This document shows, piece after piece, positions 1-63,672 of a DNA stretch of 64,000 nt; position 1 is the stretch's first letter, and every line of letters begins with the position of its first letter. The position numbers were made by a program, and so were the translations under genes. Origin of the DNA: a virus. Where the stretch lies: positions 27,908 to 91,907 of the IMG/VR virus record IMGVR_UViG_3300047095_000292, one strand, 5' to 3'. The notes under the pieces are model-generated. The model had not been told where the DNA came from, made no database searches, and saw only the letters and a list, made by a program, of their open reading frames with translations.

Positions 1-159
1 TTTTATTGTCTTCGTTACTGTACTAGTAGCTGTGACTGCATCAGTGCCAAAATTATATGCGGTATTATTCTTTTGTGTCAATGTAACATTAGAAGCAAGA
101 TCTTTAACAGCATTAAATGCTTTCTTAATCTGCGTCTTGATCATGCTATTGTAACCCAT
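1..159 (-). CDS. Partial ORF running off the window, probable head-closure/neck protein (MGYNSMIKTQIKKAFNAVKDLAS...)
   Basis: ATG at 159 overlaps the stop of the adaptor gene; open to position 1; function inferred from position only. Confidence 0.55.
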   Translation of the reverse strand, partial: MGYNSMIKTQIKKAFNAVKDLASNVTLTQKNNTAYNFGTDAVTATSTVTKTIK

Positions 160-638
160 TAGTTAGCCCTCCACCAGCTATTAGCGCCAGCGTTAACTAG
201 TAATGGTTTGATCAATCGGCGAACGTTTGCCGGAATCAGACTAGGTGGAATGATTGTTGTAAGAGCAACTGAGCCTACCTTAAGATCATTTACAACACCG
301 GTATCATCAAGCAAACCATCATTTAAAAGCATATGATGTGCAAGCTCAATATTAGCAGTTATAATACGACTTGGTACCTCAGTCTCTGACAGAGTAATAT
401 TAGTACCAAGACGTGGATCGAAGTAATAGGCAGAACGCGGAAAAGCTAAAGGTTGTGATTCACCTATGGCTGTGCCTGCCCAAGATTGATCATTCAATAC
501 ACTTGCAGCAGTGACCAATGCTTGAGCTTTGGTGGCAGCGTCTGCTGATGTCCATGCTGCTACATCAAGACGATCCGCAAAGTAAGTATCAGCTTCAGCC
601 ACAGTAGCGTATGAATTTGTTCCTTTGGATAGAGCCAT
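159..638 (-). CDS. Head-tail adaptor, DnaT-like family
   Basis: N-terminal NSYATVAEADTYF and QPLAFPR motifs typical of DnaT-like phage adaptors; directly after the major capsid gene. Confidence 0.75.
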   Translation of the reverse strand: MALSKGTNSYATVAEADTYFADRLDVAAWTSADAATKAQALVTAASVLNDQSWAGTAIGESQPLAFPRSAYYFDPRLGTNITLSETEVPSRIITANIELAHHMLLNDGLLDDTGVVNDLKVGSVALTTIIPPSLIPANVRRLIKPLLVNAGANSWWRAN

Positions 639-655
639 AGGTGTTTCCTTTAATC

Positions 656-1912
656 TTAGGAGTGGAACACTGGCAGAATGCCAAGACTTAGAGCAGAACT
701 GGCCTTACGCTTCCAAGTACCGGAAGTAGTGGTAGTCATTGCAGTCAGGTCAGTCAGCAGCTGAGGCATAGAAGCAGCGATAGCACCGGCAGTGTGCACA
801 TCGGTAGTTGCAGGAGTACCACCAGTACAGCCTGCGGTATCAACCACGTAACCATAATGTGCATCTGACGGGAACTGAGTCGTTAGACCGTTCCAATCGT
901 AACCGCCTGGATGTGCAACATAACCCCAACGATACCAGATGTCGGTAGTACCACCACCACCATATGCGCGAGCATCACGATAGATTTCAACTGGAGTAGG
1001 AACAGCCAGTGATTCCATAGCAATAGAGCCAGGCAGTACGATGAAGGAGGTCTTAGTACCAACGATATCAACACCAGCACCAGCATTAAGCTTAGCTAGT
1101 TGTGCAGTGCTAAAACTCTGAGCAGCACGAGTCTGGATCAGACGGAACTTACCACCGAAGATAGTGTCAAAAGTGACATTGGCTTCAGTTACTTTGGTCT
1201 CATCTACTAGATTAGCTGAACGCAATGATGCGAGCGTCTCTGGACTAACAACTAGATAAGCAAAGTCTGGCTCGTAGTCTTTCCATGCCATACCGACAGC
1301 ATTCAGGAAGCCTTCTGCACGAGCAGCACCTTGGATAGCAGTAGTAGCGGCAATAACAGGTTGAGCAGCACCGAGGTCCACGTAAAAGCCATACTTCATA
1401 TCAGTAGGATCATTGGTGAAGCTTTGACCACCTAGACCAGTTGCGGTAGAACCAGTAGCAGTACCATATAGAGCTTCGGAGGTTGCTACACCTTTCAGAA
1501 CAGCAAGAATAGCATTGTGCTCATCCTGTGAACGAGTCTCACCGAAGTCACGACCAATCTTGGCCAGACCATCAACCTGAGTAATAACTTGCTGCATATT
1601 TACTTGGTTAGCGCCATGCGTACGGACAGTCTTGACATAGGTCGAGAAATCTGACGTGTAGTTAGTAGCAACACCAGCAGTAGAGGCGGTCAGTGAAGCA
1701 ACGTTAATGGTAGGGTTAATTGGCTTGAACCAACGAACTTGTCCAATGAAGGTCTCAGTGGAAGTGTCAATGTTAGGGTTCGGGCCAACAATACCTGTGC
1801 CTGAAAGCTTCTTTGCATTGGTATAAGCCTCGTCACTATAAGCACCAATAGCTGCTTGTAGAGCATAGGTGTTATTACTAGGGGATGCTGCTTGGGTGTA
1901 AATTTGAGCCAT
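656..1912 (-). CDS. Major capsid protein
   Basis: 418 aa, after the scaffold and before the adaptor; C-terminal GGGTTDIWYRWGYVAHPGGYDW resembles coat-protein motifs. Confidence 0.8.
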   Translation of the reverse strand: MAQIYTQAASPSNNTYALQAAIGAYSDEAYTNAKKLSGTGIVGPNPNIDTSTETFIGQVRWFKPINPTINVASLTASTAGVATNYTSDFSTYVKTVRTHGANQVNMQQVITQVDGLAKIGRDFGETRSQDEHNAILAVLKGVATSEALYGTATGSTATGLGGQSFTNDPTDMKYGFYVDLGAAQPVIAATTAIQGAARAEGFLNAVGMAWKDYEPDFAYLVVSPETLASLRSANLVDETKVTEANVTFDTIFGGKFRLIQTRAAQSFSTAQLAKLNAGAGVDIVGTKTSFIVLPGSIAMESLAVPTPVEIYRDARAYGGGGTTDIWYRWGYVAHPGGYDWNGLTTQFPSDAHYGYVVDTAGCTGGTPATTDVHTAGAIAASMPQLLTDLTAMTTTTSGTWKRKASSALSLGILPVFHS

Positions 1913-1924
1913 TTTAATTCCTTG

Positions 1925-2647
1925 TTAGAGTTTGCCCTCCGCTGCGAGTTTTAGAACTTCAGCTTGGGACATATTAAATAGAGATTTCTTACCAGTAGGT
2001 GCTTCGCCAGTTCCAGCACCGGAACCTTGACTACCACCACCAGTATTTACCTTTGCTTTGAATAGAAATGACTGTTCATCGTCTCTTGAAAAGGCTTCAC
2101 AATAGTCCTTGATAGAGATGCCAGTACGATGTACCCACTGGCCTTGCTCATTCTGAACCAGGTTACTAACAATCTCCTTATATGCCATATCAGAAGCTTT
2201 ATCGTTTCTGAAGGTGTAACTCTTAAGTGCATCGCGCACAGCAACATCACGGCTTAGTTCCGTGTTTTGCTTTCTAAGAGCTTCATTTGTGGCTTTTTCT
2301 TCAGCAAGACGCATTTCAAAAGCTTCTTTGTGTTTGCCATCTTCCTCAAGTTTCTTTAGAGTTTGTTCCCTTTCCTTTGCTTCGAACTCTGCATTCTTTT
2401 TAAGTGCAGCATCTCGTGCAGCGTAAGCTTTATCGAGATTTGCCTTAATAGGTGCTAGTTCTTTCTCAAGTCGATCTTTGACCAGTTTAGAGATCATATC
2501 CTGATCACGCTCTTCCTGAGATAGACGCGACAAACGTGCTGTCTCTGCCTCTTGCTCTGCAGCAACTCGTGCGGCTTCCGCTTCTGCGTCCTTTACGGCT
2601 TGTGCAGCAGCTTCAGCTTCGGCAGCAATCTTTTCTTCTTCAGTCAT
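1925..2647 (-). CDS. Capsid scaffolding protein
   Basis: Charged coiled coil followed by FLFK...GGGSQG linker; directly upstream of the capsid gene. Confidence 0.75.
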   Translation of the reverse strand: MTEEEKIAAEAEAAAQAVKDAEAEAARVAAEQEAETARLSRLSQEERDQDMISKLVKDRLEKELAPIKANLDKAYAARDAALKKNAEFEAKEREQTLKKLEEDGKHKEAFEMRLAEEKATNEALRKQNTELSRDVAVRDALKSYTFRNDKASDMAYKEIVSNLVQNEQGQWVHRTGISIKDYCEAFSRDDEQSFLFKAKVNTGGGSQGSGAGTGEAPTGKKSLFNMSQAEVLKLAAEGKL

Positions 2648-2705
2648 TTTATTTTCCTTTACGAGTACAACTCGCTTTAATTATAAGAGTTACAAACTCT
2701 AAGAT

Positions 2706-5700
2706 TTAACCGATTCCATACCAGTACCTGTTATCTTTAAACTGTCCAGGGACAGCTGCAAGGATATCTTCTCTGGTTAGAATATCTGCCTGCGTTAATA
2801 GCTTACCATCGATCCTTGACCTTCCAGCCACAGGTATCAGACCAATATCGATAGCTTCATTCATGTACTTTAGATATAACTCACGCGGCATTCCGCGAGC
2901 GTACATTTCATCTAGAGTAGCTTTTATTGATTCACTTTGTACTGCTCTTGCATAGATTTCTTTTAAGGCCTGACGAGATTCTAACATATCTGCTGCATTT
3001 GTAAAGAAGGCGTCGTGTCTTTGTGTTCAAAAATGTTCGTTAAACATTCTCAGTATTGTCGAGTTAGTTATTTAATAATTCTTCCAAGTGTTACCAATTC
3101 TTATTTGCCTAATAGTGCTAGGATGCGCATTGTAGCTAACTGCAATTTCAGCATCAGATATTCCATTCTTAATTTTAGATCTTATATCAGGAATGTTCTC
3201 TGCTGTTATCTTGCGGGTCCGCAACTTACCACCATAACGACCAATCACTTCAAGACCTAAATGTGTCCAGCTCTCGCCAAGGCGTATTGCGTTAATAGAT
3301 TGACGTGTGACACCATACATAGCAGCAATCGCGGTATCTTTATACCCTACTGACATATAGTATATAATATCAGGAATATCGTCCTCTACTAAAACAGATT
3401 CCGGTCTACCAGAACCATTTAGCATAAGACCTGTATCATACGCATGTTGGACGTTTTCACGAGGTGTTGCCCACGCTAGATTACCAACTACGTTATTATC
3501 TCTAATTCCGTCTAAATGATTTACTTGTGTTTTGTTTTCTGGATTAGGTATAAAAGCTTCTGCTACAAGTCTATGTACTTTCGCCCTGAATGGTTTACCA
3601 TCTACTTCTATTTTAAAATGTCTATAACCATTTTGCAATGAACCATACGTAAGCAAACCAGTGCTTTCGCGCCTTAATCGCCCCAAACTGCTTACAGCAT
3701 ATCTCTTATCTTTATTGCATATACACCAAAATTCTTCCATTACATTTACTCCTTGTGTCTCGACAACACATCTGCATATTACTGTGCAGAACAGACTATA
3801 TCTTCAACAGCCTTATTGCTAGCTGTTGCCCCGCGTTTCGAGCAGACTTCTGCCCTACTCTACTTGGTAGTTACACCGTTCGATAGTCGTTGCACCTTGC
3901 TCTTGCGAGCCTTGGCTCAGGATTGCCCTTATGAGGGTGTCCCCTGAATTAGCGGAGTTTTACTACGGCAAGTTATTCACCGTACCTGTTTGAATATTAT
4001 TCTTTTGTCCCCATAGATGAAATTGCTTTACGATAACCGCATCGTTCAGTTTGTTCAATAGTGTTCGTTAAACGCTATCGGTATTGCGCCAATTAGCATT
4101 TTACTTCCTTTAATGTTGCTTGGCGCGCAACACCTGCATGTCACCATGCAGCTCAGACTATCTCTTATACTATTACTAGTATCTCTACGTTTCGAGCAGA
4201 CTACTGCCCTATGGACTTCATCTTCTGTTCTAGAAGGTATGTCCTAGTCGTTGCACCTTCAAAACCATTCCTGGTTAAGCTTGGCTCAGGATTGACTCAT
4301 GGAGTGTTTCCCTGAATTAGTAGAGTTTATTCACAGCATTTTGTTTACTGTGATTACCGTTTACGGCGTAAGCCGTTCTAGCCTTGCCAGTATCTACAAT
4401 ATCGTTAATAGTACCTTTCTTATTTAGGAAGTACTGTTCCCATGTTGTAGGCTCTGTCTTTTGCTGTACCTGAATAATATTATTTATCCATTTACCTTCA
4501 GCATTTTTGTATGCAAGCTTCTCTTCAAAGGTCTGCGTAAATACCTGTTCCAGAGTTTTACCATCAAAGTTTACCCATGGAATATTAGTCCAAGACTTTG
4601 GTAGCTTATTATCGTAACCAACCTCAATACCTTTGGTAACATCGATACCGGCTATATCAAACTTACCGATTGTAAAGCCAGTCTTTCGATCAACAGGAGA
4701 TTTATAACCCATGATAATATTAGAGACAGTACTGTCTGGCACATATCCGGGAATACGATTAAGTATCTTTTCTTTAATACTTTCATCCTTAATCCCAAGT
4801 GTACGGCTTAACCATTTAGGTAGTCTCTTACCTGCTTTATAATCACCGTATATTGCAGTCTTTAGAGTAGACACAGGGGCAATACTAGCTGCCTTTGGTT
4901 TAGCATGTAAGGCATAATCCTCAGCAAGTCTACCGAAGAACTTAGTAAAGTCCTTTAAGATAGGTACTTGTGATCTTAAATTCTCGGACATGATCATTGC
5001 AATCTGTTGAAAATCGTCAGGTGTCACGACCTTGCCATATTCCCTGCTAAGTTTCTCAACAAAGTCTCTTGTACGGGGTTCAAGGAAATATAGTTGTTCA
5101 AGCATATCATCACCAGGAGCTAAGCCCTTATTGAACATATCCTTCACATCTTGTCGCAATGCCTTCAGTTCTCGATACATATCTGGATCGAATTTTTCAT
5201 ATCGAGCCATCCTTGCACTGATCTCCGACATGACAGCATCACGCTCACTGGCCTTTACAACAAGAAAATTTTCCTGCTTCTCTAATACCTTAGCAAGTTT
5301 GTTTTCTACGTTCATAATGCCTGTACGCTCGCCTGCTCCGTAAAATGTTACCATATTTTGCATTTATGTTTAGTATGATTCGTTAAGTCATACTGGTGTT
5401 ATTGTCAAGTTTGTTAATTAGTAATTAGTCCAAGTTTTCTTTGCTATTCTTAATACTACCCATATTACTTACGAAGTATGGTAAGTTGTCTATCTGTTTC
5501 CAAATCTCGTCCATTTTATACTTTCACATGTGTCTTGACAACACCCTGCATGTTACCATACAGATCAGACTATATCTTCAAAGTAGCATAGCTACGATGT
5601 CCCCCGTTTCGAACTCACTTGAGTCCTACGTCTTTCGACTAGTCGTTGAACCTTCAAAAGTGTTTCCACTTAAGCTTGGCTGCTGATTGTCCTGCAACAG

Positions 5701-8700
5701 GAGTTTCCAGCAATTAAAGGGATTTTACAAGACCAAAAATTAGCCTTGGAAGCCTTACGCAAATCTTTCTCTGTCAGACCTAGCTTCTTGTTAAGTTCTC
5801 TGAACCTTGGATCATTAAAGGTACTTGCTGCTATCTCGTCGTATAACCTCTGCTTCTGATTAGTAGGTACCACATTACTAAGTTGAGCTAATTGTTTATT
5901 CTTTGTGGCAAGTGCAATAATCTGTGCTCCAGAAGAGCTAGCATCTTGCTCTAGTGCGATGGCTATCTTATAGCTGTTAAGCCTCTTCAAGCTAGCCGCA
6001 GAATAATCACCTCCTAAGTATTCGTTTATCTTAGACATCTCTAAAGCAAACCGTAGGACTTTTCCCTGTTCCTCTCCGTCGATCTCCTGTAAAAATTTTG
6101 ATTCTAATATTTTGCGTATATCATTAGGCTTACCACGACGCATCTGATCACCAAGTTGTATCATGTCTTTGCGCCACAGTGTAGCAATCTGTTGTCTACC
6201 AAGTACTGATAGCGAGTTATACCTGTCTTCTAGATGATCAGATGCTCCACCTAGAAAGGCTCCTATCTGGTCCTGGAAGTTAGCAAACTCAATATCGCTA
6301 AAGTTCTTAGCCTGCGCCGTGTTTAAAAACGGTCTACGTTTATGTTCAACAGTATTCGTTAGATACTGCCAGTACTTACCAAGCATTGTTATTGTTTAAT
6401 AGTTTTTCCAGGTCTTACCAGATATAATGCCAGAGATAGTGCCGCTATGCACATTATAATCTCTGCCAATAGAAGCTAAACTTTCTCCAAGTTCGTGTCT
6501 AGTTCGTATATCTGGAATATCCTTACCTGATAGTTTTTTCTCACATATGCTACTTTTAGGACTCTTAGCTGGAAACACTAAGTCTGGTCTAACTTGTTTC
6601 CATGTATCCAAGGTTCGTATCTTAGATATTGTTCCTTTATTAACACCAAACAGCAATCCTATTTCGGTATTATTTAACTCATATTCTACAAATAGCTTTT
6701 TAATATTTTCGACATTCTCTTCATTTAGAACAGCTATGTATGTATCCGAACCAGAAACGCACATATCATTTGACCAAGCGTGTTTCATATTATCTACATG
6801 CGAAAGCCATTCTAAGTTTTCTACTCGATTATCCGTTTTCACTCCATTGATATGATTAACTTCAAGTGATAGATCTTTATTTTCTATAAACGTTATTGCA
6901 ACCAGACGATGCACTGCAATCGTAATATCATCTATATTTACAGCTAGATAACCTTTGCAGTTATCTTTAACTTTTAGCAGTTTCTCACTTTTATTCGACC
7001 ATACATTTCCTAGAGTGCTAATTAAATACTGCGTATTCTTATACTGTTTCCAAATTTCTGTCATGTTAATCTTCCATGTCGTGCTTGGCAGCACTTCTGC
7101 AATTTCGTTTCCTTATATGCAGACCAGACTATATCATCACCGCTGTCATAACAGTACGGTGTTGCGCGCTTCCATCGGACTTCCGATGTACTCCCGTAGG
7201 ATAGTCGTTGAACCTTCAAATTCATTTCTGAATAAGCTTGGCTGCTGATTGTCCATTAACGTATGGAGTTTCCAGCAATTCACGCAATTTTCGATGTATA
7301 TTACTATACAAAGCTTCTGATAACAAAAGTTTCTCCGCTTTGAGGCCCAATAAAGCCTCGTTCATATATACGTGCGCGATGATCTAGGAAGGGATGATTG
7401 CTGAATGCAACATCCTTTGTCCTAAGCCATTTCATTGACTTAAGCCTCTCATATGCATCACCACGTTCAATCATATACTCACGATACTTGTTCAAATCAT
7501 TGTAATACTTAGCTGCACCCTTATCATCTTGAAAGTTTATAAGCTTCTCAATGAAATCATGAAAGTCTGGATCTACCTTGTATTTTGCTGACGCTGCCCA
7601 ATTAAGAGCCCTTGTCATATCTTTATCAATTAACTTGGCAGGGAAATCGCTAAAGGAACTTGTAGATGTAATAGGAATTCGAGTATCCATTAGTCCATAC
7701 ATACCCCTATCAACAAAGTATGTTTTATAGCCCTCACGTATCAAGAGTCTATTACTATCTACAGTAACACCAACACGAAGACCCACATCTACCTTTCGAG
7801 TAAGTCTAGCATACTCTTGAATCCTGGGATCTACAATTCGTAGATTCACTGAGAATGTATCATAGTATGGACCAAAATATGCTCCAAAGTTTCTACTCTT
7901 CATTCTACGTTTCTGTACGCCAAAGGTCTCTAATTCATAGAAGCCCTTACCATGCGCGTCATCTAACAGCTTTACTCCAAGATTATACCATTCGTTACGG
8001 CTACCACGATAGTTAGCCATATTATATAAGTCACGGCCTAGTGCAACTGCTAATTGGTCTCTATCAGGTGAGTCTGCTAGACTAAGACGCCTTGCAAACT
8101 TTAAATAGAAATTATCCAACTGTTCATCATCTAGCCTTATCTTTAATTTAGCGGGTAGCCTGAAGTCTAGTATGTTACGTAACTCTTTAGCGATCTTCGG
8201 AGCAGTGCGATCTTCCCATTTATTCTTAGCAATTATATTAGAAATAAAGTTATCATGTAGCTCTTGTAACTGAGTTGGACCAAGAACTGGATCAATATAA
8301 TTAGCTTGCTTTAATTTGAAAAGAAGATTAGCATCTTTTCTAATTTGAGTCTCGATATAATCAGATACGTTCATAATATCAAACTTAATCTGACCTTGTA
8401 AGACAGCCTTCATGTTAGTCCATGGCTCTTTGTTATCACGAAAACGCCCAAAAGTTATCCGGAGATTTTCAGTAATTACTGCCCTCTCGTTAACACCCAT
8501 GTGATCTTCAAGGCCATCTACAAAGTTCTTAATGAACTCTTTATCTCTAGGTAGAAGAGACTCACTCTCATCTACAAGTTTATACGTATTACGCAATGTA
8601 TCAGGACTTGGTTGGTACATACGGGAATCATCGTACCTGCCAGTGATCGGATTATATTTTAAATTCTCTTCTCTAGGTGGTGATCCAAGTACTCTTGCCT

Positions 8701-9955
8701 TAGTATTCTTTTTATTATGTAGTAAAGTGCCTCGATAATTCGTAAGAGAAAGCGTACCATCTAGCTCTCCTGATTGCAATATGTAATATTCTTTAAGAGC
8801 TTTCTGGAGTTCCTTATTGTCATAAAATTCATCAGGTCTTGCTGCACCTAACTTAATTACATCCAGTCTCTCCTTCGCCAACGCGAATCTTCGAGTGTCA
8901 CCTGGAATTCCATACCCAGAGTCAGTAAGACCTCTAAGCTCTCTAATCCCGACGCTATTGCCGCCTGCATTAGAGAACTTGTCCAAGGTAAGCTGTCCTG
9001 ATCTAAATAGCTCAAGCTTTGTTGTATCGCCAATGTGCTTGAATTGCACCTCAACGGGTTGTCGTTGTAGCCACGCATTATATGATTCCTTAAGAGGAGT
9101 TTGTCCATCGTATAAGGCAATCTGTTTAGCTGACAATCCTTCAAAATTCCTTTTGCGAATTTGTGCAATACCCTCTAACGAACCGAGTTGGTCATAGCTC
9201 TTAACTATTGGTATTGTCGTCGATCTGCAGTACCAGTGTGCTGGTGGCAGATGCTCATGGTCACTTATCGGGTAGATAGTTCCATCCCTTGACGCACATA
9301 AAGGGGTAGTCCTAGAATCTAATACGGCAACATATTGCCATCCTTGTAATGCCTTTTCATTAGCTTTGTAAACTTCATGGTCAGCCTGAGCATATACACT
9401 TGTCGTAGCTGTAACTGTAAGGCCTTTAGCCTGATTCTTTGTTATATTAAAGGTAGACTTAGATATAGACTTAGCAATTTCATTTTCATTAAGACCTTCT
9501 GCTATACCTTTTCTAATCAGCCCTTCAATACGTATCTTCTCATTCTTTCCAATCCCTGCCCAGCCCTGATCTAGTGTTTTATCAAGGTATATCGGCCTGT
9601 GCAATACAATATCCTCTGCAACACGCCTAGGCGGTTGTGATACTCGCCAGATACGTCCAATTGCATCATCCATATTTTGAACAGCATAGGAAGTCTGATC
9701 CTTGAACAAGTCTAAGAGAGAACGGCTAGACACATTGTGTGCATCTGCCATTGTCTTTATAATTTCTTTATCGAGACTTGCTTGAAAGCCTTTAAAGCCT
9801 GTTCCACGTAACTTTGATTCTTTGATAAGACTATCAACGCGCACTGCATGTCCATCAATAATTAACTCTACTTTATTAGAAGTACGTTGCTCATATAAGC
9901 GTATCATTGCTGCACGATTGATACTCTTATCATAAATCTGTGTATTAACATTCAT
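2706..9955 (-). CDS. Spliced gene: MuF (SPP1 gp7-like) minor head domain fused to a T7-like single-subunit RNA polymerase, 1539 aa; exons 9955-7326, 6336-5742, 5360-4347, 4046-3979, 3018-2706
   Basis: MuF motif WQYVAVLDSRTTPLC...PPAHWYCRS; RNAP motifs DHRARIY, motif A EQDASSSGAQ, spliced motif B RKASKA|QNMVTFYG, NGNHS|ND, motif C TV|HDAF; exon lengths 2630+595+1014+68+313 = 4620 nt, in frame. Confidence 0.92.
3019..3978 (-). mobile_element. Group I intron 4 (960 nt) with HNH ORF, in RNAP motif C
   Basis: P1 UACGGU/GCCGUA; core like intron 3; terminal G 3019; GT|A splice gives TGTVHDAFF. Confidence 0.93.
3072..3740 (-). CDS. Intron-encoded NUMOD4/HNH homing endonuclease
   Basis: VSSLGR, VHRLVAEAFIPNPENKTQVNHLDGIRDNNVVGNL, two HTH-like repeats, ends GNTWKNY. 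Confidence 0.9.
   Translation of the reverse strand: MEEFWCICNKDKRYAVSSLGRLRRESTGLLTYGSLQNGYRHFKIEVDGKPFRAKVHRLVAEAFIPNPENKTQVNHLDGIRDNNVVGNLAWATPRENVQHAYDTGLMLNGSGRPESVLVEDDIPDIIYYMSVGYKDTAIAAMYGVTRQSINAIRLGESWTHLGLEVIGRYGGKLRTRKITAENIPDIRSKIKNGISDAEIAVSYNAHPSTIRQIRIGNTWKNY
4047..4346 (-). mobile_element. Group I intron 3 (300 nt), ORF-less
   Basis: P1 UCACAGU/GCUGUGA; elements AATTCAGGGAAAC, AATCCTGAGCCAAG, GGTGCAACGACTA, GAGATAGTCTG; terminal G 4047; splicing gives NGNHS|NDAV. Confidence 0.92.
5361..5741 (-). mobile_element. Group I intron 2 (381 nt), in RNAP motif B
   Basis: P1 CAAGGCU/GGUCUUG with U.G at the splice site; same core elements as intron 1; terminal G 5361; splicing restores R-x3-K-x7-YG. 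Confidence 0.93.
5418..5514 (-). pseudogene. Internally deleted homing endonuclease relic in intron 2
   Basis: MDEIWKQIDNLPYFVSNMGSIKNS (NUMOD4 start) joined out of frame to KKTWTNY*, matching the G[K/N]TWKNY* ends of the intact intron HNHs. Confidence 0.8.
6337..7325 (-). mobile_element. Group I intron 1 (989 nt) with HNH ORF
   Basis: P1 U.G pair at ACT TT|; core elements AATTGCTGGAAACTCC, AATCAGCAGCCAAG, GGTTCAACGACTA, GATATAGTCTG; terminal G at 6337; splicing gives GETFRPFLN. Confidence 0.92.
6396..7064 (-). CDS. Intron-encoded NUMOD4/HNH homing endonuclease
   Basis: MTEIWK...ISTLG (NUMOD4), VHRLVA...VNHINGVKTDNRVENLEW (HNH), two C-terminal HTH-like repeats; likely start ATG 7064. Confidence 0.9.
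   Translation of the reverse strand: MTEIWKQYKNTQYLISTLGNVWSNKSEKLLKVKDNCKGYLAVNIDDITIAVHRLVAITFIENKDLSLEVNHINGVKTDNRVENLEWLSHVDNMKHAWSNDMCVSGSDTYIAVLNEENVENIKKLFVEYELNNTEIGLLFGVNKGTISKIRTLDTWKQVRPDLVFPAKSPKSSICEKKLSGKDIPDIRTRHELGESLASIGRDYNVHSGTISGIISGKTWKNY
8136..8159 (-). promoter_or_regulatory. Candidate phage RNAP promoter inside the MuF-RNAP gene
   Basis: GCTACCCGCTAAATTAAAGATAAG, near-identical to the intergenic copy at 24246-24269. Confidence 0.45.
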
Positions 9956-9963
9956 GATAATCC

Positions 9964-10440
9964 TTAGGACGGCTTATGAAATTCCCCATGATGTTCAGCC
10001 GTAACAGCATCACGAGCCTTGCTTGCTTCCTCTGCAGTATCGTATAGACCGATAGTATGGCGGTTTCCATCAACCACCACCCTCGCCCTCCACTTACCAC
10101 TAAATTTATCTATCCCTTTAAATCCTGACGTGTTAGTACTAGGTGCATTTCTATTCTGCATATTTTGTTCGGCAGTAGCAGGTCGCAAATTTTTTATACG
10201 GTTATTGAGACGATTAGTATCTCTATGATCAACTTTCTCAGGTATGTCGTCATGATGCAACATATAGATCAATCGATGGACCTTATATGTTTTACCACCA
10301 TATTTCACCTGCAGATAGCCTTCGCTATTCTTAGTGCCCACAGGAGAACCCTTAACTATTGAAGGGCCTCCATTAATATTCCAGAACAATTGACCGTCTT
10401 TATAGTAGAATGTTTCTTTAATCTGCTTCTGGGTCAGCAT
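9964..10440 (-). CDS. Free-standing HNH-AP2 endonuclease
   Basis: VHRLIY...VDHRDTNRLNNRIKNL, then SGFKGI...WRA...IGLYDTAEEA; likely start MLTQKQ at 10440. Confidence 0.88.
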   Translation of the reverse strand: MLTQKQIKETFYYKDGQLFWNINGGPSIVKGSPVGTKNSEGYLQVKYGGKTYKVHRLIYMLHHDDIPEKVDHRDTNRLNNRIKNLRPATAEQNMQNRNAPSTNTSGFKGIDKFSGKWRARVVVDGNRHTIGLYDTAEEASKARDAVTAEHHGEFHKPS

Positions 10441-12076
10441 TAGGCTTAGCCTTCTTAAGTGGTGTCTTAGCTTTAGGTGTTGATATACCAGCCATGTCTG
10501 CAACCTTGCTAGCATAGCTGTCGGCATCAACTTGGCCCATCACCATATCATCTTCAGTAATCTCGATCTGACCCTCTTCGTCATTATAATCAGGACTAAT
10601 CATATCATTAACTTTGAGAATCTGTAGCCAAATAGAACGAGGAATGAGTCCACTCTGATACCATTCAGTAGCAAGACGTAGCCAATCAGCACCAAGTGGG
10701 GTTGGATTAAAGTCAGCAGACAACTCAAACTCAATATCAGTATTTTTAAGCTGTAAATCATAGCGCCAGTTAAGCATAAATGCAATAATAGACGCCATCT
10801 GATTACTTACTTTAATATTAAGAGTTCCTAATTGAGCAGTCTGAGCAGCATTACGAATGTCCAGTGCAACACCTGACTGTTGAGTTTCTGGTGTCAGCAT
10901 ACGAATACCCAGCTTAGCCATATCCTCAATAGCAGATGCAATAGCTCTATCCATGTCTGTAAGTGCAGCAGTAGGTGTATCAAGGACAGTAGCTGTAGCA
11001 CCTTCTGGGAGCTTAAGCCAGGTGCCTAAACCGGCATCTACAATTGCATCAAAAGCATCATCAGTTATATTTCCCGTCAATACAGGTGTATACGTAGACG
11101 CGCCATACAACAGATGATTACGTCGGCTCATTTTATTATATAGTGCAACTTCCTTATCAATAAAAGGAGATAGCATAGGTTCAATAACACGAATTGAACC
11201 ATTTAATGGCCATGCAGGAATCTGTGTAAGACGCTCGCCATTCATTAGAATAGTTTCAAGTGTCTCGACTAGCTCATAAGCTGACAATTTAGGATCAGCC
11301 CCAGCTGCATTCTGCGTATACTTCTGTTGTAGTTTGCCGTTAACAACAATCACCTGCGCATCTTCTACCTTCTTCTCATATCTACGGATACGATAGAAAC
11401 CTTCTACGATTTCATGTACGATAACAGTATCTATATAAGACGGATGAAATTCGTTTTCTTCAACGCGCTCTACGTAGTTTCTAACGATAATCTGTTCTAG
11501 AGACTGTACACCAGTATCCTCTCGAGTCGATACTCGCCAATTAATTATAGATTCAGCGTTCCATATTACAGGATAGGGTTTCAGTTCAGCATACTGTTCC
11601 CTAGTAAGATCTTCTGGGTTTAATATCTTAGGATAGTCTACATACACCCATGCTCTGCTTGTCTGAACTTCTTCCCATAGAATTTCATCAAGAAAAGAGA
11701 CCAGCGGTGAGCTATTATGGCTAAAGTGATTCATTATCCATTCATATGCTCCAGCTGGCACCTTACCTTCTGGAAGCTTAAGCTGAGGTTGTTTCCTTAA
11801 CAGACCACCAATAATAATGCGAGCATATTGAGAGACAATACCTGGGAGTTCTGCTTCTGCCTTGTAGAATTCATATTGCTTTGCATCCATTGAGGGCGAG
11901 AAAGGGATCAGCAAATTGCTAAATGTCAGTACATCAAGGTAGCCATCAAAGTCCTTAGCAAAACGCTCACCACCTATAATTGCTCTCGATTTTTCCCATA
12001 AACCTCTCATTGACTCGTATGAAGATGTTGGATCTGCTACTGAACGCTTGTGTTGAACTGCATTGACTACTGACAT
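10418..12076 (-). CDS. Portal protein (DUF4055-like)
   Basis: 552 aa, upstream of the MuF gene; YEFYKAEAELP, RAWVYVDYP...PYPVIWNAESIINWR pattern. Confidence 0.8.
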   Translation of the reverse strand: MSVVNAVQHKRSVADPTSSYESMRGLWEKSRAIIGGERFAKDFDGYLDVLTFSNLLIPFSPSMDAKQYEFYKAEAELPGIVSQYARIIIGGLLRKQPQLKLPEGKVPAGAYEWIMNHFSHNSSPLVSFLDEILWEEVQTSRAWVYVDYPKILNPEDLTREQYAELKPYPVIWNAESIINWRVSTREDTGVQSLEQIIVRNYVERVEENEFHPSYIDTVIVHEIVEGFYRIRRYEKKVEDAQVIVVNGKLQQKYTQNAAGADPKLSAYELVETLETILMNGERLTQIPAWPLNGSIRVIEPMLSPFIDKEVALYNKMSRRNHLLYGASTYTPVLTGNITDDAFDAIVDAGLGTWLKLPEGATATVLDTPTAALTDMDRAIASAIEDMAKLGIRMLTPETQQSGVALDIRNAAQTAQLGTLNIKVSNQMASIIAFMLNWRYDLQLKNTDIEFELSADFNPTPLGADWLRLATEWYQSGLIPRSIWLQILKVNDMISPDYNDEEGQIEITEDDMVMGQVDADSYASKVADMAGISTPKAKTPLKKAKPNADPEAD

Positions 12077-12588
12077 AATGTGGAGTCCCCTGTCTGCAAA
12101 CCTGGATTAAAAAACTCACCGTAATTAGAGATAGCCGCAAGGCAGTACGCTTTATAAGCTTCTTCAGGTGTTTCAAAAAATCCTATAAATTTTCGTTTAC
12201 CTTCTATCCCAATCTTAGCAACCCATTTGCTAAATTGAGAGTTCCACGATACTCCTTTATAACCTGAAGTATTATTAGATCTTAGACTCTGATTATGGTT
12301 ATTATCAGAAAAAGAAGCAGCTCTTAGGTTACAAATTCTATTATCGGTTCGTATGGTATTTACATGATCTATGTTTTCTGCAGGAAATTCGCCATACACA
12401 TATAGCCACGCTAATCTGTGAGCCTTATATGTAACATTTTGTACTCTTATACGTAAGTATCCTGTGTCTGTTAAGCTCCCAGCAATATCACCTGCCTTTA
12501 CACGATTACTTGAAGAAATTCTACGTGTAAACACACCTGTATTACTATCATATATTAGATATTCTTTTAACACAGCTTGTGTTAGCAT
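12067..12588 (-). CDS. Free-standing HNH-AP2 endonuclease
   Basis: AHRLAWLYVYG...IDHVNTIRTDNRICNLR, NTSGYKGVSW, FETPEEA. Confidence 0.9.
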   Translation of the reverse strand: MLTQAVLKEYLIYDSNTGVFTRRISSSNRVKAGDIAGSLTDTGYLRIRVQNVTYKAHRLAWLYVYGEFPAENIDHVNTIRTDNRICNLRAASFSDNNHNQSLRSNNTSGYKGVSWNSQFSKWVAKIGIEGKRKFIGFFETPEEAYKAYCLAAISNYGEFFNPGLQTGDSTLCQ

Positions 12589-60315: not shown

Positions 60316-61411
60316 TAAAAAACTCCATAACCTTTCTCTTTAGCTCAGGATCCCTTGTAGATACTACAAGAGGTTTCTTGTAGATACCAATCTTAAATCG
60401 CCAATCTAAATACCGATCGTATAATAACACAGTAGGCTTATCAAGTGCAAGCGCAAGATGTGCAAAAGCTGTATCTACCGTTATTACACCATCCATTGGT
60501 CCCAGATAACTAGCAGTATCAAGGAAGCATGTAATACCCTTTGTTACATCAGTGCCTATCTTCTCTTTACCACCCATTTGGAAGTTATACATCTCATACA
60601 CATCAAGAAATTTCTTAAACGCAGAAATTGGGACTAATCGTTCTTTATGTGCATTACCTTTGCCACTTGTGCTATATACGAAAGCGATATTAGGCCTCTT
60701 AGAGAACTGAATCTCTGCAGGTACGTCTCCTGTGTACTTAGATAGCTCAGGAAATTTCCCAAACTTTTCTACATACATACAGAATAAGTCACCTGTAGAT
60801 GTTACGTAATCATAGTGTTCCTGTAGATACACATCCGAGTTATCATAATTTAGTTCATCCTCAATGTACATTTCAAATTCTGGAGGATAATTGTGCCTGA
60901 ACAACAGACCAAGCTCACCTCTAGAGTATATGAAGATACGTTTACAGCCAGCCTCTGGTAAGTACTTATAGACATGTGAGAACATCAGGTCGTCCCCAAA
61001 GCCTTGCTCACCTATTACAAAGACCCTCTTATCTTTAAGCTGATCCCATGATTTTAGATAAGCAATAGCCCTGTGCATACCTGTATATTGATCAAATGCC
61101 GGTTCGCTCGTGTACCACCGATAGTCATACTCCTTAAAACCGGAGATGTCACCTTTATTAAGTTTGTTAATACCTAACAGATTTCTTAGTTTAAAGTCCT
61201 CCTTAAACTTTAGGTATTGAGTAGCATACTCGGTAGATTCGTCATACTCACCCACTAGATAATAATTATTAGCTAGATGTTTTATACAGTCAAGCGTTGT
61301 ACTCTCCCCAAGGTTCTGGGAAAGTGCAATCTTTAAGTATTTAATTGCCTCACGAAGATTACCCTTCTTTTCTAATTTAAATATTTTTACAAGTATTGGA
61401 ATTTTGTTCAT
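60293..61411 (-). CDS. TPR-repeat protein with a GT-B (GT9-like) glycosyltransferase domain
   Basis: TPR-like N-terminus; GFKEYDYRW, EQGFGDDLMF, VITVDTAFAHLALALDKP. Confidence 0.8.
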   Translation of the reverse strand: MNKIPILVKIFKLEKKGNLREAIKYLKIALSQNLGESTTLDCIKHLANNYYLVGEYDESTEYATQYLKFKEDFKLRNLLGINKLNKGDISGFKEYDYRWYTSEPAFDQYTGMHRAIAYLKSWDQLKDKRVFVIGEQGFGDDLMFSHVYKYLPEAGCKRIFIYSRGELGLLFRHNYPPEFEMYIEDELNYDNSDVYLQEHYDYVTSTGDLFCMYVEKFGKFPELSKYTGDVPAEIQFSKRPNIAFVYSTSGKGNAHKERLVPISAFKKFLDVYEMYNFQMGGKEKIGTDVTKGITCFLDTASYLGPMDGVITVDTAFAHLALALDKPTVLLYDRYLDWRFKIGIYKKPLVVSTRDPELKRKVMEFFNDRNKEL

Positions 61412-63672
61412 GCAAATGCATACTCCGAATCTAGAATTAGTGTTATGTCAAGACTACCAAGCTCTACATTGCTAATATCGCCCTCGATATCTATCATAAT
61501 TGAACTCAAAGGATCTGCCTTGTATAGCTCTACAAATGTCTCTCGAATGATGATGAAGAGGTCAGCCATATCTCCAAGCAAGCACCCAAATGAATCATGA
61601 ATGGTGGTAACAGGGAAATCGGCTCTATGAACAGCAAGCATTAGGTGTGCAGCGTCAAGACTATGAATAGCATTTGGTGAAGCTCCCTGAGATTGTTTCT
61701 TTTTGCTATGCTTTGTATGTTCTAGAAAACATATCTTTAGTTGCAATGTGTTCTCAAAACACCCATGACTGTTTCGTTCACCAATAGGTGGTCCGTACTG
61801 TACATTAAGCATCTTTACAATGCCCTCTGTATAATGTTGGACTACAGGAAAATCTGTGATTGGGACAGTCCATGCAAGAAACTCATCACGCGCCTCCGCC
61901 TTCTTTCCAGCTTCCTCGAATACTGAAAGTAGCTGCATAGGCCTACGTAATGAGACACGACAGTCATCATATACTTCACGACCCATGTATGAACCCCAGG
62001 CATGCTCCATAGAGAACAGTTGATCAATGCCATGTTTACGTGCATCATCAATAACTTGCTGTCCAAGGCCATATGCAGTACCGCCATAGGGCAATGTCAT
62101 TACATTTCTCTTACAGATCTTTCTCTTATGTTTTGCATCAGTGATACGATTCCAATATACACATGCTGACTTCTTAAGAAGGCCCTCATGATGTTTCTTG
62201 TAATCGATAATTTCAGATATTAACTCTTTACGTCTGTCTGATTTTAGAGGTGCCTCATTGATTTGATGCTTTAGATCTGAAATATTGTCAATGAACTTTT
62301 CACATTCTTTTATCTCATTCTTAGATAGCTTAGATACTTCTTCTTCGATCCTGAGCCAGACATGGTCAGCAACATACTTATATAAATCGCCAGGAAGATC
62401 AAGTGGTACCAGATTGACGTGTGGCGCAGTAATCTCATCGCGAGTTAATGCTGATAAGTGTTGGGAACCATTGTTTGAGCCATCAATATAACATTCAATA
62501 CTGCTCTGATAATCGTACTCATTCAGCTGTCCGTCATTTATTGCAATACTGTAGATCAATTGCCAATCACGCAATTTCTTTAATTCAAAGCATGCAGCTA
62601 GAAATTGCCATGGTTTATCAGCATGCATCCATCCCTGATTAATCTTCGGAGATAACGCATAGGACAAGATGATTTCCTCATTATCTAGAACCCAATAGAC
62701 CCTGTCATTGAGAGGGATCTTATCTGTCTTATAACCATCATCTCGCCCTGCATCTCCGGCCCAATTAGAGGCAATGGAGATAAGCAACCAAAAATAACCC
62801 TGTTCTCCGATAGATTTTTTATCTGCACGTAGCAGTAATCCTTTTGCAAGATCAGTTCCCTGCTCATTAAGATATGCTGTTGATGGGTACTTCCTTCCCC
62901 TAAAGTCGTACGTGTATAAGTGATAAAAGGTCTTTCCAATAAATCTTTTGGCGATTGATCCAATTGCCTTAGCCTCTCTTATCTTACTTTGTTTTGCTTC
63001 AGGATTGTGCATCTCCCAGATGTCAGCAAAGGCCTCTGTTTTGTTCCGCAATGCCCATGTGTAGATAGGATAAATATCCTCGTTAATCTGCCATCCAACA
63101 GCTTGTGCCTTATTCAGACAGTCGAATACAATAGGATGTGTTTCAGGTGTAAGCTTACGTAAAACCTCTTTGTTAGATGTCTTTACCATGGCTCGCCCAC
63201 TGTCACTATGAGATGATGTCCAGGGGCTGTATGGAGTTTCGCTTGGAAGTTTCTCAGTCTTATCATTCGAGATACTATCCCACAATAGACTAAGCTTATC
63301 TTCCTCTAAGATCTCCACAGTATATGTTGCATGATGATTGGTAGCCTTGCCTAATACTACATGGAGTAACCCTACTACCTCGAAAGTGTAAAGTATGAAT
63401 GCCCCCGCCTTTGCTGCAGCACCACTATCACGCTTTAGCTTATGTACGTTACGAATACCATGACCTATGGCTGAAATTACCTCAGTCATGAGTGTTATCT
63501 TCTTTGATGCCCCTCTGCCTGCCCTGGTGTATAAGTAGATTACTGAGATTGCTAAATCAATCATCTCAGCACAATCAAGATCCTTTATAAACTTAACTGG
63601 ATTTTGTGGTGCAATGTCAGAGGCAATACGTTGTGTTAAGGAAGCAATTAATTTTTGTTTTGTGCTTTCCAT
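61408..63672 (-). CDS. T7-like single-subunit DNA-directed RNA polymerase (754 aa, no introns)
   Basis: DFRGRKY, DGSNNGSQH, RKICKRNVMTLPYG, PNAIHSLD, IHDSF. Confidence 0.96.
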   Translation of the reverse strand: MESTKQKLIASLTQRIASDIAPQNPVKFIKDLDCAEMIDLAISVIYLYTRAGRGASKKITLMTEVISAIGHGIRNVHKLKRDSGAAAKAGAFILYTFEVVGLLHVVLGKATNHHATYTVEILEEDKLSLLWDSISNDKTEKLPSETPYSPWTSSHSDSGRAMVKTSNKEVLRKLTPETHPIVFDCLNKAQAVGWQINEDIYPIYTWALRNKTEAFADIWEMHNPEAKQSKIREAKAIGSIAKRFIGKTFYHLYTYDFRGRKYPSTAYLNEQGTDLAKGLLLRADKKSIGEQGYFWLLISIASNWAGDAGRDDGYKTDKIPLNDRVYWVLDNEEIILSYALSPKINQGWMHADKPWQFLAACFELKKLRDWQLIYSIAINDGQLNEYDYQSSIECYIDGSNNGSQHLSALTRDEITAPHVNLVPLDLPGDLYKYVADHVWLRIEEEVSKLSKNEIKECEKFIDNISDLKHQINEAPLKSDRRKELISEIIDYKKHHEGLLKKSACVYWNRITDAKHKRKICKRNVMTLPYGGTAYGLGQQVIDDARKHGIDQLFSMEHAWGSYMGREVYDDCRVSLRRPMQLLSVFEEAGKKAEARDEFLAWTVPITDFPVVQHYTEGIVKMLNVQYGPPIGERNSHGCFENTLQLKICFLEHTKHSKKKQSQGASPNAIHSLDAAHLMLAVHRADFPVTTIHDSFGCLLGDMADLFIIIRETFVELYKADPLSSIMIDIEGDISNVELGSLDITLILDSEYAFA

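Follow-up and report, generated by a model that had tools for sequence, protein, structure and literature searches.

The genome of an uncultured phage, IMG/VR record IMGVR_UViG_3300047095_000292 (91.9 kb, rated 100% complete), carries a head module in which one gene is split into five coding pieces. We analyzed bases 27908-91907 of this record, and this whole 64-kb stretch is referred to as the window; positions are those of the window unless a relative is named. On the minus strand, the head module reads from 5' to 3' portal, free-standing HNH endonuclease, MuF-RNA polymerase (RNAP) gene, scaffold and major capsid (Table 1). The MuF-RNAP gene (9955-2706) is a late gene for a 1539-amino acid (aa) fusion of a MuF domain with a T7-type RNAP, probably packaged into the capsid, and we consider it highly probable that it is interrupted by four mobile, self-splicing group I introns.

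Ribozyme cores, splice sites and the joined reading frame

Scanning with the Rfam covariance model for group I introns (RF00028; gathering score 50 bits; model positions 1-253) resulted in four matches on the minus strand, located at 7336-7097 (81.8 bits), 5752-5546 (89.4 bits), 4380-4134 (71.9 bits) and 4026-3772 (78.7 bits). The E-values range from 1e-16 to 1e-21 in the 64-kb window and every match spans the full model. Beyond these four, no further group I intron was detected by RF00028 in the 91.9-kb genome. The genes for a second RNAP, ribonucleotide reductase (RNR), polA and terL each consist of one uninterrupted open reading frame (ORF) with a full-length family match and without an intron. 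The four cores are mutually 53-65% identical, and the P, Q, R and S strings are recognizable in their alignment. All four introns have an insertion of 31-51 nucleotides (nt) between P7 and the 3' strand of P3 in the Rfam alignment; P7.1/P7.2 pairings at this place are a hallmark of subgroup IA. Altogether, the introns resemble the phage intron pool found in the polymerase genes of T4-like and SPO1-like phages, in terminase genes and in phage Twort.

Direct reading of the sequence revealed that each 5' exon ends with a U, which is U.G-paired in a P1 helix of 6-9 bp. The pairings are AAACUUU/..GAAG.., CAAGGCU/GGUCUUG, CACAGU/GCUGUG and UACGGU/GCCGUA for introns 1 to 4, and the introns terminate with a G at 6337, 5361, 4047 and 3019, respectively. 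For introns 3 and 4 the Rfam alignment misplaces P1, either within the exon or with marked mismatches, and the true P1 is located in an insertion of the model. An earlier reading of the same DNA, made from the letters alone and called here the original prediction, had already proposed four group I introns with exactly these boundaries, a U.G pair at each frame-restoring splice site, P/Q/R/S elements and a terminal G in each core, and no introns in the second RNAP, RNR, polA and terL genes. The covariance model that it had suggested as a check, the sequence reading and the restored frame agree with it on all of these points, and for introns 3 and 4 its splice sites are to be preferred over those implied by the Rfam placement of P1.

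Joining of the five exons gives 4620 nt that encode 1539 aa without an internal stop. At the junctions, F877 (TT/T), A1075/Q1076, S1413/N1414 and V1436 (GT/A) are rebuilt. In-frame stops occur 5-24 codons into every intron, seven codons in the case of intron 1, so unspliced RNA would yield no polymerase but only an 883-aa protein with the MuF domain and the N-terminal part. ORF callers list the locus as ORFs of 883, 238, 348 and 93 aa, and the homologue in EBPR siphovirus 1 is annotated in this way in GenBank, which could be taken to mean that the products of five independently translated coding pieces come together as a multi-piece polymerase, with no RNA splicing at all. We regard this as extremely improbable, since exon 4 has a length of just 68 nt, two junctions fall within codons, exons 2, 4 and 5 have neither a start codon nor a ribosome-binding site at the homology boundary, and a complete ribozyme is present in each gap.

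Further support for the four introns comes from their 3' ends. All of them share a similar tail of about 45 nt containing a hairpin with an invariant UAACGA loop, located 18-20 nt before the terminal G. Covariation of the six stem pairs was analyzed in 13 introns, the four of the window and nine from relatives. In this set 88.5% of the cells are paired compared with 45% in shuffles, and not one of 500 shuffles reached the observed value. All six pairs vary on both sides, and sliding the partner strand by 1-3 columns left only 24-48% paired. The constant distance between hairpin and terminal G independently supports the 3' splice sites of the original prediction. In introns 1 and 4 the endonuclease gene is inserted between the 5' core (about 230-270 nt) and this 3' module (about 55 nt), dividing the ribozyme into two pieces. 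No previously described element was found to which the hairpin with the UAACGA loop could be assigned. As a mark of the remote 3' splice site, it could improve automatic boundary calling in ORF-bearing phage introns.

Table 1. Exons, introns and neighboring genes of the MuF-RNAP locus in the window, and intron insertion sites in the MuF-RNAP gene of the window and its relatives. L-numbers are loci of relatives; residues and codons are numbered according to the window protein.
Feature	Position	Strand	Details
Exon 1	7326-9955	minus	2630 nt; 876 codons + TT of Phe877; MuF domain (aa 143-248), polymerase N-terminal part through DHRAR
Intron 1	6337-7325	minus	989 nt; core ~7325-7097 incl. P2 hairpin; HNH 7064-6396; 3' hairpin 6368-6350
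Exon 2	5742-6336	minus	595 nt; motif A (DASSSGAQ) and first half of motif B (LRKASKA); PF00940 weak on exon alone
Intron 2	5361-5741	minus	381 nt; core ~5741-5546; endonuclease remnant 5514-5425; 3' hairpin 5392-5374
Exon 3	4347-5360	minus	1014 nt, 338 codons; second half of motif B (QNMVTFYGAG) to NGNHS
Intron 3	4047-4346	minus	300 nt; no endonuclease gene; 3' hairpin 4077-4059
Exon 4	3979-4046	minus	68 nt; 22 codons + GT of Val1436; between NHS/ND site and motif C
Intron 4	3019-3978	minus	960 nt; core ~3978-3772; HNH 3740-3072; 3' hairpin 3049-3031
Exon 5	2706-3018	minus	313 nt incl. stop; motif C (HDAF) and C terminus
Portal gene	10418-12076	minus	head module, upstream of MuF-RNAP gene
Free-standing HNH_3 endonuclease gene	9964-10530	minus	Pfam HNH_3 2e-13; in no intron
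Scaffold gene	1925-2647	minus	downstream of MuF-RNAP gene
Major capsid gene	656-1912	minus	downstream of scaffold gene
Insertion site Phe877 codon			window only
Insertion site A1072/A1073			L042, L125
Insertion site A1075/Q1076			window; L169/L170
Insertion site Val1079 codon			EBPR siphovirus 1, L023, L038, others
Insertion site Phe1081 codon			L012, L042
Insertion site G1083/A1084			L021/L022
Insertion site G1410/N1411			L012, L038; probably L146, L171 (mapping approximate)
Insertion site S1413/N1414			window
Insertion site Val1436 codon			window; L124
Insertion site D1438/A1439			L125-127

Identity of the interrupted gene and its intron-less homologues

Exon 1 encodes a MuF minor-head domain (Pfam PF04233, 2e-16), and the gene lies downstream of the portal gene and upstream of the scaffold and major capsid genes. 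The polymerase part is best recognized in the intron-less homologue P0001, which matches PF00940 with 45.1 bits (cut-off 22; E 8e-12) and also PF04233. Using hhalign against T7 RNAP (E 3e-4; T7 residues 395-575), DHRAR was aligned with T7 D421-R425 and DASSSGAQ with T7 motif A (D537). The stretch RKASKAQNMVTFYG shows the exact R-x3-K-x7-YG spacing of T7 motif B. By spacing and a weak hmmsearch match, NGNHS corresponds to the region of T7 H784 and HDAF to H811-D812 of motif C.

A sequence search of the PDB with the intron-less homologue gave no match, and a profile search of the PDB gave T7 and N4 RNAP2 matches that are colinear but sub-significant. An AlphaFold model of the C-terminal 740 aa has a predicted local distance difference test (pLDDT) score of 52. 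Its top Foldseek hits are all T7 or mitochondrial RNAPs (E about 1e-5), which, coming from a low-confidence fold, may weakly support the polymerase identity. Judged by domain matches and motif spacing, the gene product is a divergent single-subunit T7-type RNAP fused to a MuF minor-head domain. The MuF domain and the position of the gene suggest that the polymerase is probably packed into the capsid.

All four introns are located at or close to conserved polymerase motifs. Intron 1 is inserted 14 residues past DxxAR, intron 2 within motif B between its K-A and Q-N residues, intron 3 within NGNHS/ND, in the T7 H784 region, and intron 4 in the Val codon immediately before HD of motif C. This placement had been part of the original prediction, and the hhalign alignment, the spacing and the weak hmmsearch match are all in agreement with it. 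The contiguity of homologues across these positions, on which the prediction had made itself dependent, was also found. The joined protein (residues 1-1539) aligns as one tblastn segment in one frame with many IMG/VR relatives, and each intron site is uninterrupted in 104-117 of 118 related loci. The closest full-length homologue, L009, is intron-less, 80% identical and continuous through GETFRPFL, RKASKAQNMVTFYGAG, NGNHSNDA and TVHDAFF; the homologue P0001 is continuous through NGNHSNDA...TVHDAFF.

In comparison with L009, the exons downstream of the introns show proportions of non-synonymous differences (pN) of 0.12-0.22 and of synonymous differences (pS) of 0.67-0.92. With pN far below pS, these exons have evolved as coding sequence under strong purifying selection. 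This result also bears on the idea that the introns are dead relics and the polymerase part has become a pseudogene, in which case exon 1 alone would give a product (MuF domain and N-terminal region). The loss of the endonuclease genes from two of the four introns would fit such a relic, which we nevertheless consider very unlikely. Exons 2-5 are free of stops and frameshifts and retain every invariant motif residue of the family in addition to their low pN. Moreover, the four cores span the full model and score well above the Rfam cut-off, and the P1 U.G pairs, the terminal G and the covarying 3' hairpin are kept in all four introns.

Nucleotide conservation at the insertion sites is high as well. 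When 11 intron-less homologues were aligned by codon, the four sites fell into the 88th to 99.9th percentile of nucleotide conservation over 30 nt. As these are the most DNA-conserved stretches of the gene, introns inserted there would be able to move between diverged phages.

The gene itself is widespread. Exon 3 as query found 45 IMG/VR relatives, and altogether at least 430 IMG/VR contigs contain the MuF-RNAP gene, which also occurs in EBPR siphovirus 1 and the cultured Naomviridae (33% identity). In EBPR siphovirus 1 (L005, JF412302.1 25771-31144), a group I intron interrupts one MuF-RNAP gene at the Val1079 codon; it scores 40.5 bits with RF00028, which is below the cut-off (E 7e-7). GenBank lists this gene as gp47 'head protein', gp48 'HNH endonuclease' and gp49 'hypothetical protein'. 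Gene callers split the MuF-RNAP gene into 'hypothetical proteins' in this manner, and the polymerase is easily missed. In Bacteriophage DSS3_VP1 (L006, NC_055826.1 21242-25633), a cultured roseophage of the Naomviridae, a 1463-aa 'head morphogenesis' protein is an intron-less MuF-RNAP homologue with 33% identity. The paper describing this family does not mention an RNA polymerase (PMC8323127).

Introns and endonucleases in related phages

To avoid bias, intron frequency was determined in a sample of 80 relatives, for whose collection the bait was restricted to the intron-free upstream portion of the protein. Introns occur in the MuF-RNAP gene of about 15 of them, with a maximum of two per gene. 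The original prediction had called the count of four striking, which is fair in degree, as none of the sampled relatives exceeds two. Combining window and relatives, ten insertion sites are distributed over four motif blocks (Table 1). Of the ten, five cluster within 12 codons of motif B, and the six sites beyond the four of the window are found in three of these four blocks. Records of 13 relatives could be searched for group I introns (12 of them at least 90% complete), and six of the eight introns detected lie in the MuF-RNAP gene. The two outside the polymerase gene are G002:C1:47335-47635, in the genome of L038, and G010:C1:41141-41337, in the genome of L094. The four-intron allele is the extreme of a gene that is already the preferred intron host of this phage group.

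Over 90 nt, intron 1 shares 92% identity with the intron that L021/L022 carry in motif B. Ribozyme segments shared in this way across different sites point to movement and recombination within one putative intron pool. At the site of intron 4, the Val1436 codon, L124 has a homologous intron whose endonuclease is 69% identical. L169:9528-10385 (and also L170) contains an intron at A1075/Q1076, the site of intron 2, with a 5' core 80% identical to that of window intron 2. It carries a different, classical HNH ORF of 198 aa and, by colinearity, seems to end with A and not with G. A separate observation concerns L042:4471-5787, where motif B is interrupted by a pair of group I introns scoring 92.8 and 96.8 bits with RF00028; they enclose a micro-exon of 26 nt that encodes AKAQNMVT plus two bases of Phe.

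Not every gap in the tblastn alignments is an intron. Gaps of about 350-450 nt in L012, L029 and L044 were considered as intron candidates and rejected, as they are open, in-frame protein insertions with no Rfam match. Such in-frame insertions occur at L012:7075-7425, L044:7284-7736, L202:~4132-4548 and L029:8085-8432 as well as in L187, L190 and L203. One insertion type is a ParB-like domain of about 117-151 aa with a DGxHR motif, positioned at about aa 984-988, before motif A, and another follows directly after motif B. In addition, the reading frame of the MuF-RNAP changes near aa 446-449 at L162:7663-7668; the cause could be an error in sequencing, a frameshift or a very small insertion.

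The state of the endonuclease genes differs between the four introns. They are intact in introns 1 and 4, reduced to an N-terminal remnant in intron 2 and absent from intron 3. The intron 1 enzyme (222 aa) matches Pfam HNH_3 (2e-8), NUMOD4 (5e-6) and HTH_38, and the intron 4 enzyme, also with 222 aa, matches HNH_3 (4e-10) and, sub-threshold, HTH_23. Against PDB 1U3E (I-HmuI) they gave values of 4e-9 and 5e-10, respectively, and in a full-length alignment they are 31% identical to each other. The remnant in intron 2 comprises 29 codons of NUMOD4 type and starts with MDEIWKQ, as do the intron 1 and intron 4 enzymes. No relatives of the intron 1 endonuclease were found in the scan of IMG/VR.

The free-standing HNH gene between the portal and polymerase genes overlaps the end of the portal ORF. 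Its product is only a distant kin of the intron enzymes (31% identity to the intron 1 enzyme, over 71 aa only), and the Rfam scan gave no RF00028 match at this gene. The terL, RNR, primase/helicase, polA and second RNAP genes are located farther along the window on the minus strand. The second RNAP (61408-63672) is an ordinary T7-like polymerase (PF00940, E 4e-63). When the region was compared with 50,697 phage records by megablast, only short matches to endonuclease genes were returned. A promoter and terminator scan of positions 1-12500 found fewer sites than in shuffled sequence.

The original prediction had also proposed that splicing might limit the amount of polymerase. As an addition to intron mobility, four successive, imperfect splicing events could act as a dosage or timing valve, holding the amount of full-length polymerase low compared with that of the 883-aa MuF-only product and setting the ratio of structural MuF protein to polymerase cargo. 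Unspliced RNA does encode such a MuF-containing protein, ending seven codons into intron 1, and the MuF-RNAP gene lies upstream of the scaffold and major capsid genes in the same orientation, with no terminator found between the MuF-RNAP and scaffold genes in the scan. On the other hand, about four fifths of the relatives are intron-less in this gene and most of the others have one intron, which indicates that introns are dispensable for its expression. Furthermore, the introns are patchily distributed and track endonuclease genes, which is the expectation for selfish spread. Dosage control is therefore rather unlikely in our view; it is possible but not needed, and any regulatory effect would be purely conjectural.

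Proposed mechanism and comparison with known systems

Based on the anatomy described above, each intron would fold as a ribozyme in the pre-mRNA. Its internal guide would pair with roughly the final six bases of the exon, giving a P1 helix with the U.G at the cleavage site. An external guanosine would attack at the 5' splice site, the terminal G would dock, and ligation of the exons would rebuild F877, A1075/Q1076, S1413/N1414 and V1436. The 3' hairpin module presumably helps to draw the distant 3' splice site to the core. The intact I-HmuI-like enzymes of introns 1 and 4 would promote homing: they would cut or nick intron-less alleles of co-infecting relatives, and repair would copy the intron in. 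Introns 2 and 3 have lost their endonuclease genes.

Several points weigh against a gene interrupted by four self-splicing introns. Splicing is deduced from the anatomy of the introns, and polymerase activity and capsid packaging are likewise deduced from the encoded protein and the position of the gene. P10 is weak or absent in introns 1, 3 and 4 by sequence reading. Inspection by eye of the P5 loop, J7/9 and the R element gave no partner for the UAACGA loop, or for the UGAACA box before the terminal G, that is consistent across the four introns. Finally, no relative was found to have an intron at codon 877 (tblastn, 118 loci and the 80-relative sample); the 3' splice site of intron 1 consequently rests on the restored frame, the DNA identity with L009 and the hairpin distance.

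A more far-reaching interpretation is offered only tentatively, as we hold it to be possible rather than probable. The capsid-polymerase gene may be a standing battlefield of competing intron-endonuclease elements, in which the four-intron allele is a stacked genotype. With each intron interrupting the very site that it targets, this allele would resist several endonucleases at once. During co-infection, intron-less relatives would come under attack from its two live I-HmuI-like enzymes, and the endonuclease-less introns would persist by hitch-hiking in the co-conversion tracts of their endonuclease-bearing neighbors. Intron 3 is 68 nt away from intron 4, and intron 2 is 595 nt away from intron 1.

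That conserved genes of phages can harbor group I introns encoding homing endonucleases is textbook knowledge, and the window can be compared with several known cases. The T4 nrdD (sunY) intron reportedly consists of a 5' core, a long ORF and a short 3'-terminal domain that is required for bringing in the remote 3' splice site (Michel et al., 1992). By this description, introns 1 and 4 of the window are alike in architecture. For the host gene only, the virion RNAP gp50 of coliphage N4 can be considered. This T7-type polymerase of about 3500 aa, without a MuF domain, resides in the capsid and is injected along with the DNA; such a role is proposed here for the MuF fusion of the window. We know of no reported introns in N4 gp50. 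In SPO1 and its relatives, as in the window and its relatives, introns are found a few bases apart. The SPO1 DNA polymerase intron resembles those of the window in that it lies in a catalytic motif of a polymerase, and both intact window enzymes match SPO1 I-HmuI (PDB 1U3E) over almost its whole length. In contrast to SPO1, the target in the window is an RNAP gene, and the enzymes have a greater length (222 aa) and two additional predicted helix-turn-helix repeats at the C terminus.

In PhiPA3, an RNAP gene carries a group I intron with the HNH endonuclease gp210 (PMC11620839; PMC11878797). As in the window, a mobile group I intron and an HNH enzyme reside inside a phage RNAP gene, which provides a plausible way of interfering with co-infecting relatives that lack the intron. 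In PhiPA3, however, the host gene is that of one subunit of a multisubunit polymerase and contains a single intron, whereas the window has four in a single-subunit, T7-like polymerase gene.

Closest in number are Staphylococcus phage Twort, the classic case, whose orf142 is credited with three group I introns (Landthaler & Shub, 1999, as cited in PMC11878797), and the Bastillevirinae, with two or three introns in DNA polymerase and terminase genes (PMC11878797). According to a 2025 survey, two or three introns are the upper range per phage gene (PMC11878797). These phages share with the window several self-splicing group I introns in one conserved gene, and the core of window intron 4 aligns with a Twort intron at 79% over 86 nt. 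Unlike them, the window has four introns, two of which are only 68 nt apart, and the host gene is a MuF-fused single-subunit RNAP in the head module. In a literature search that was incomplete in journal coverage, we found no phage gene with four or more group I introns, no introns in a single-subunit phage RNAP gene and no description of a MuF-RNAP fusion.

Compared with these systems, three aspects are new. Four introns in one phage protein-coding gene exceed both the two or three of the survey and the two of the relatives, a MuF-fused single-subunit RNAP appears as intron host gene, and insertion is clustered family-wide, with ten sites in four catalytic motifs. Together, the window and its relatives form a natural series of 0, 1, 2 and 4 introns with intact, decayed or lost endonuclease genes, which is well suited to the study of intron invasion, endonuclease decay and phage competition.

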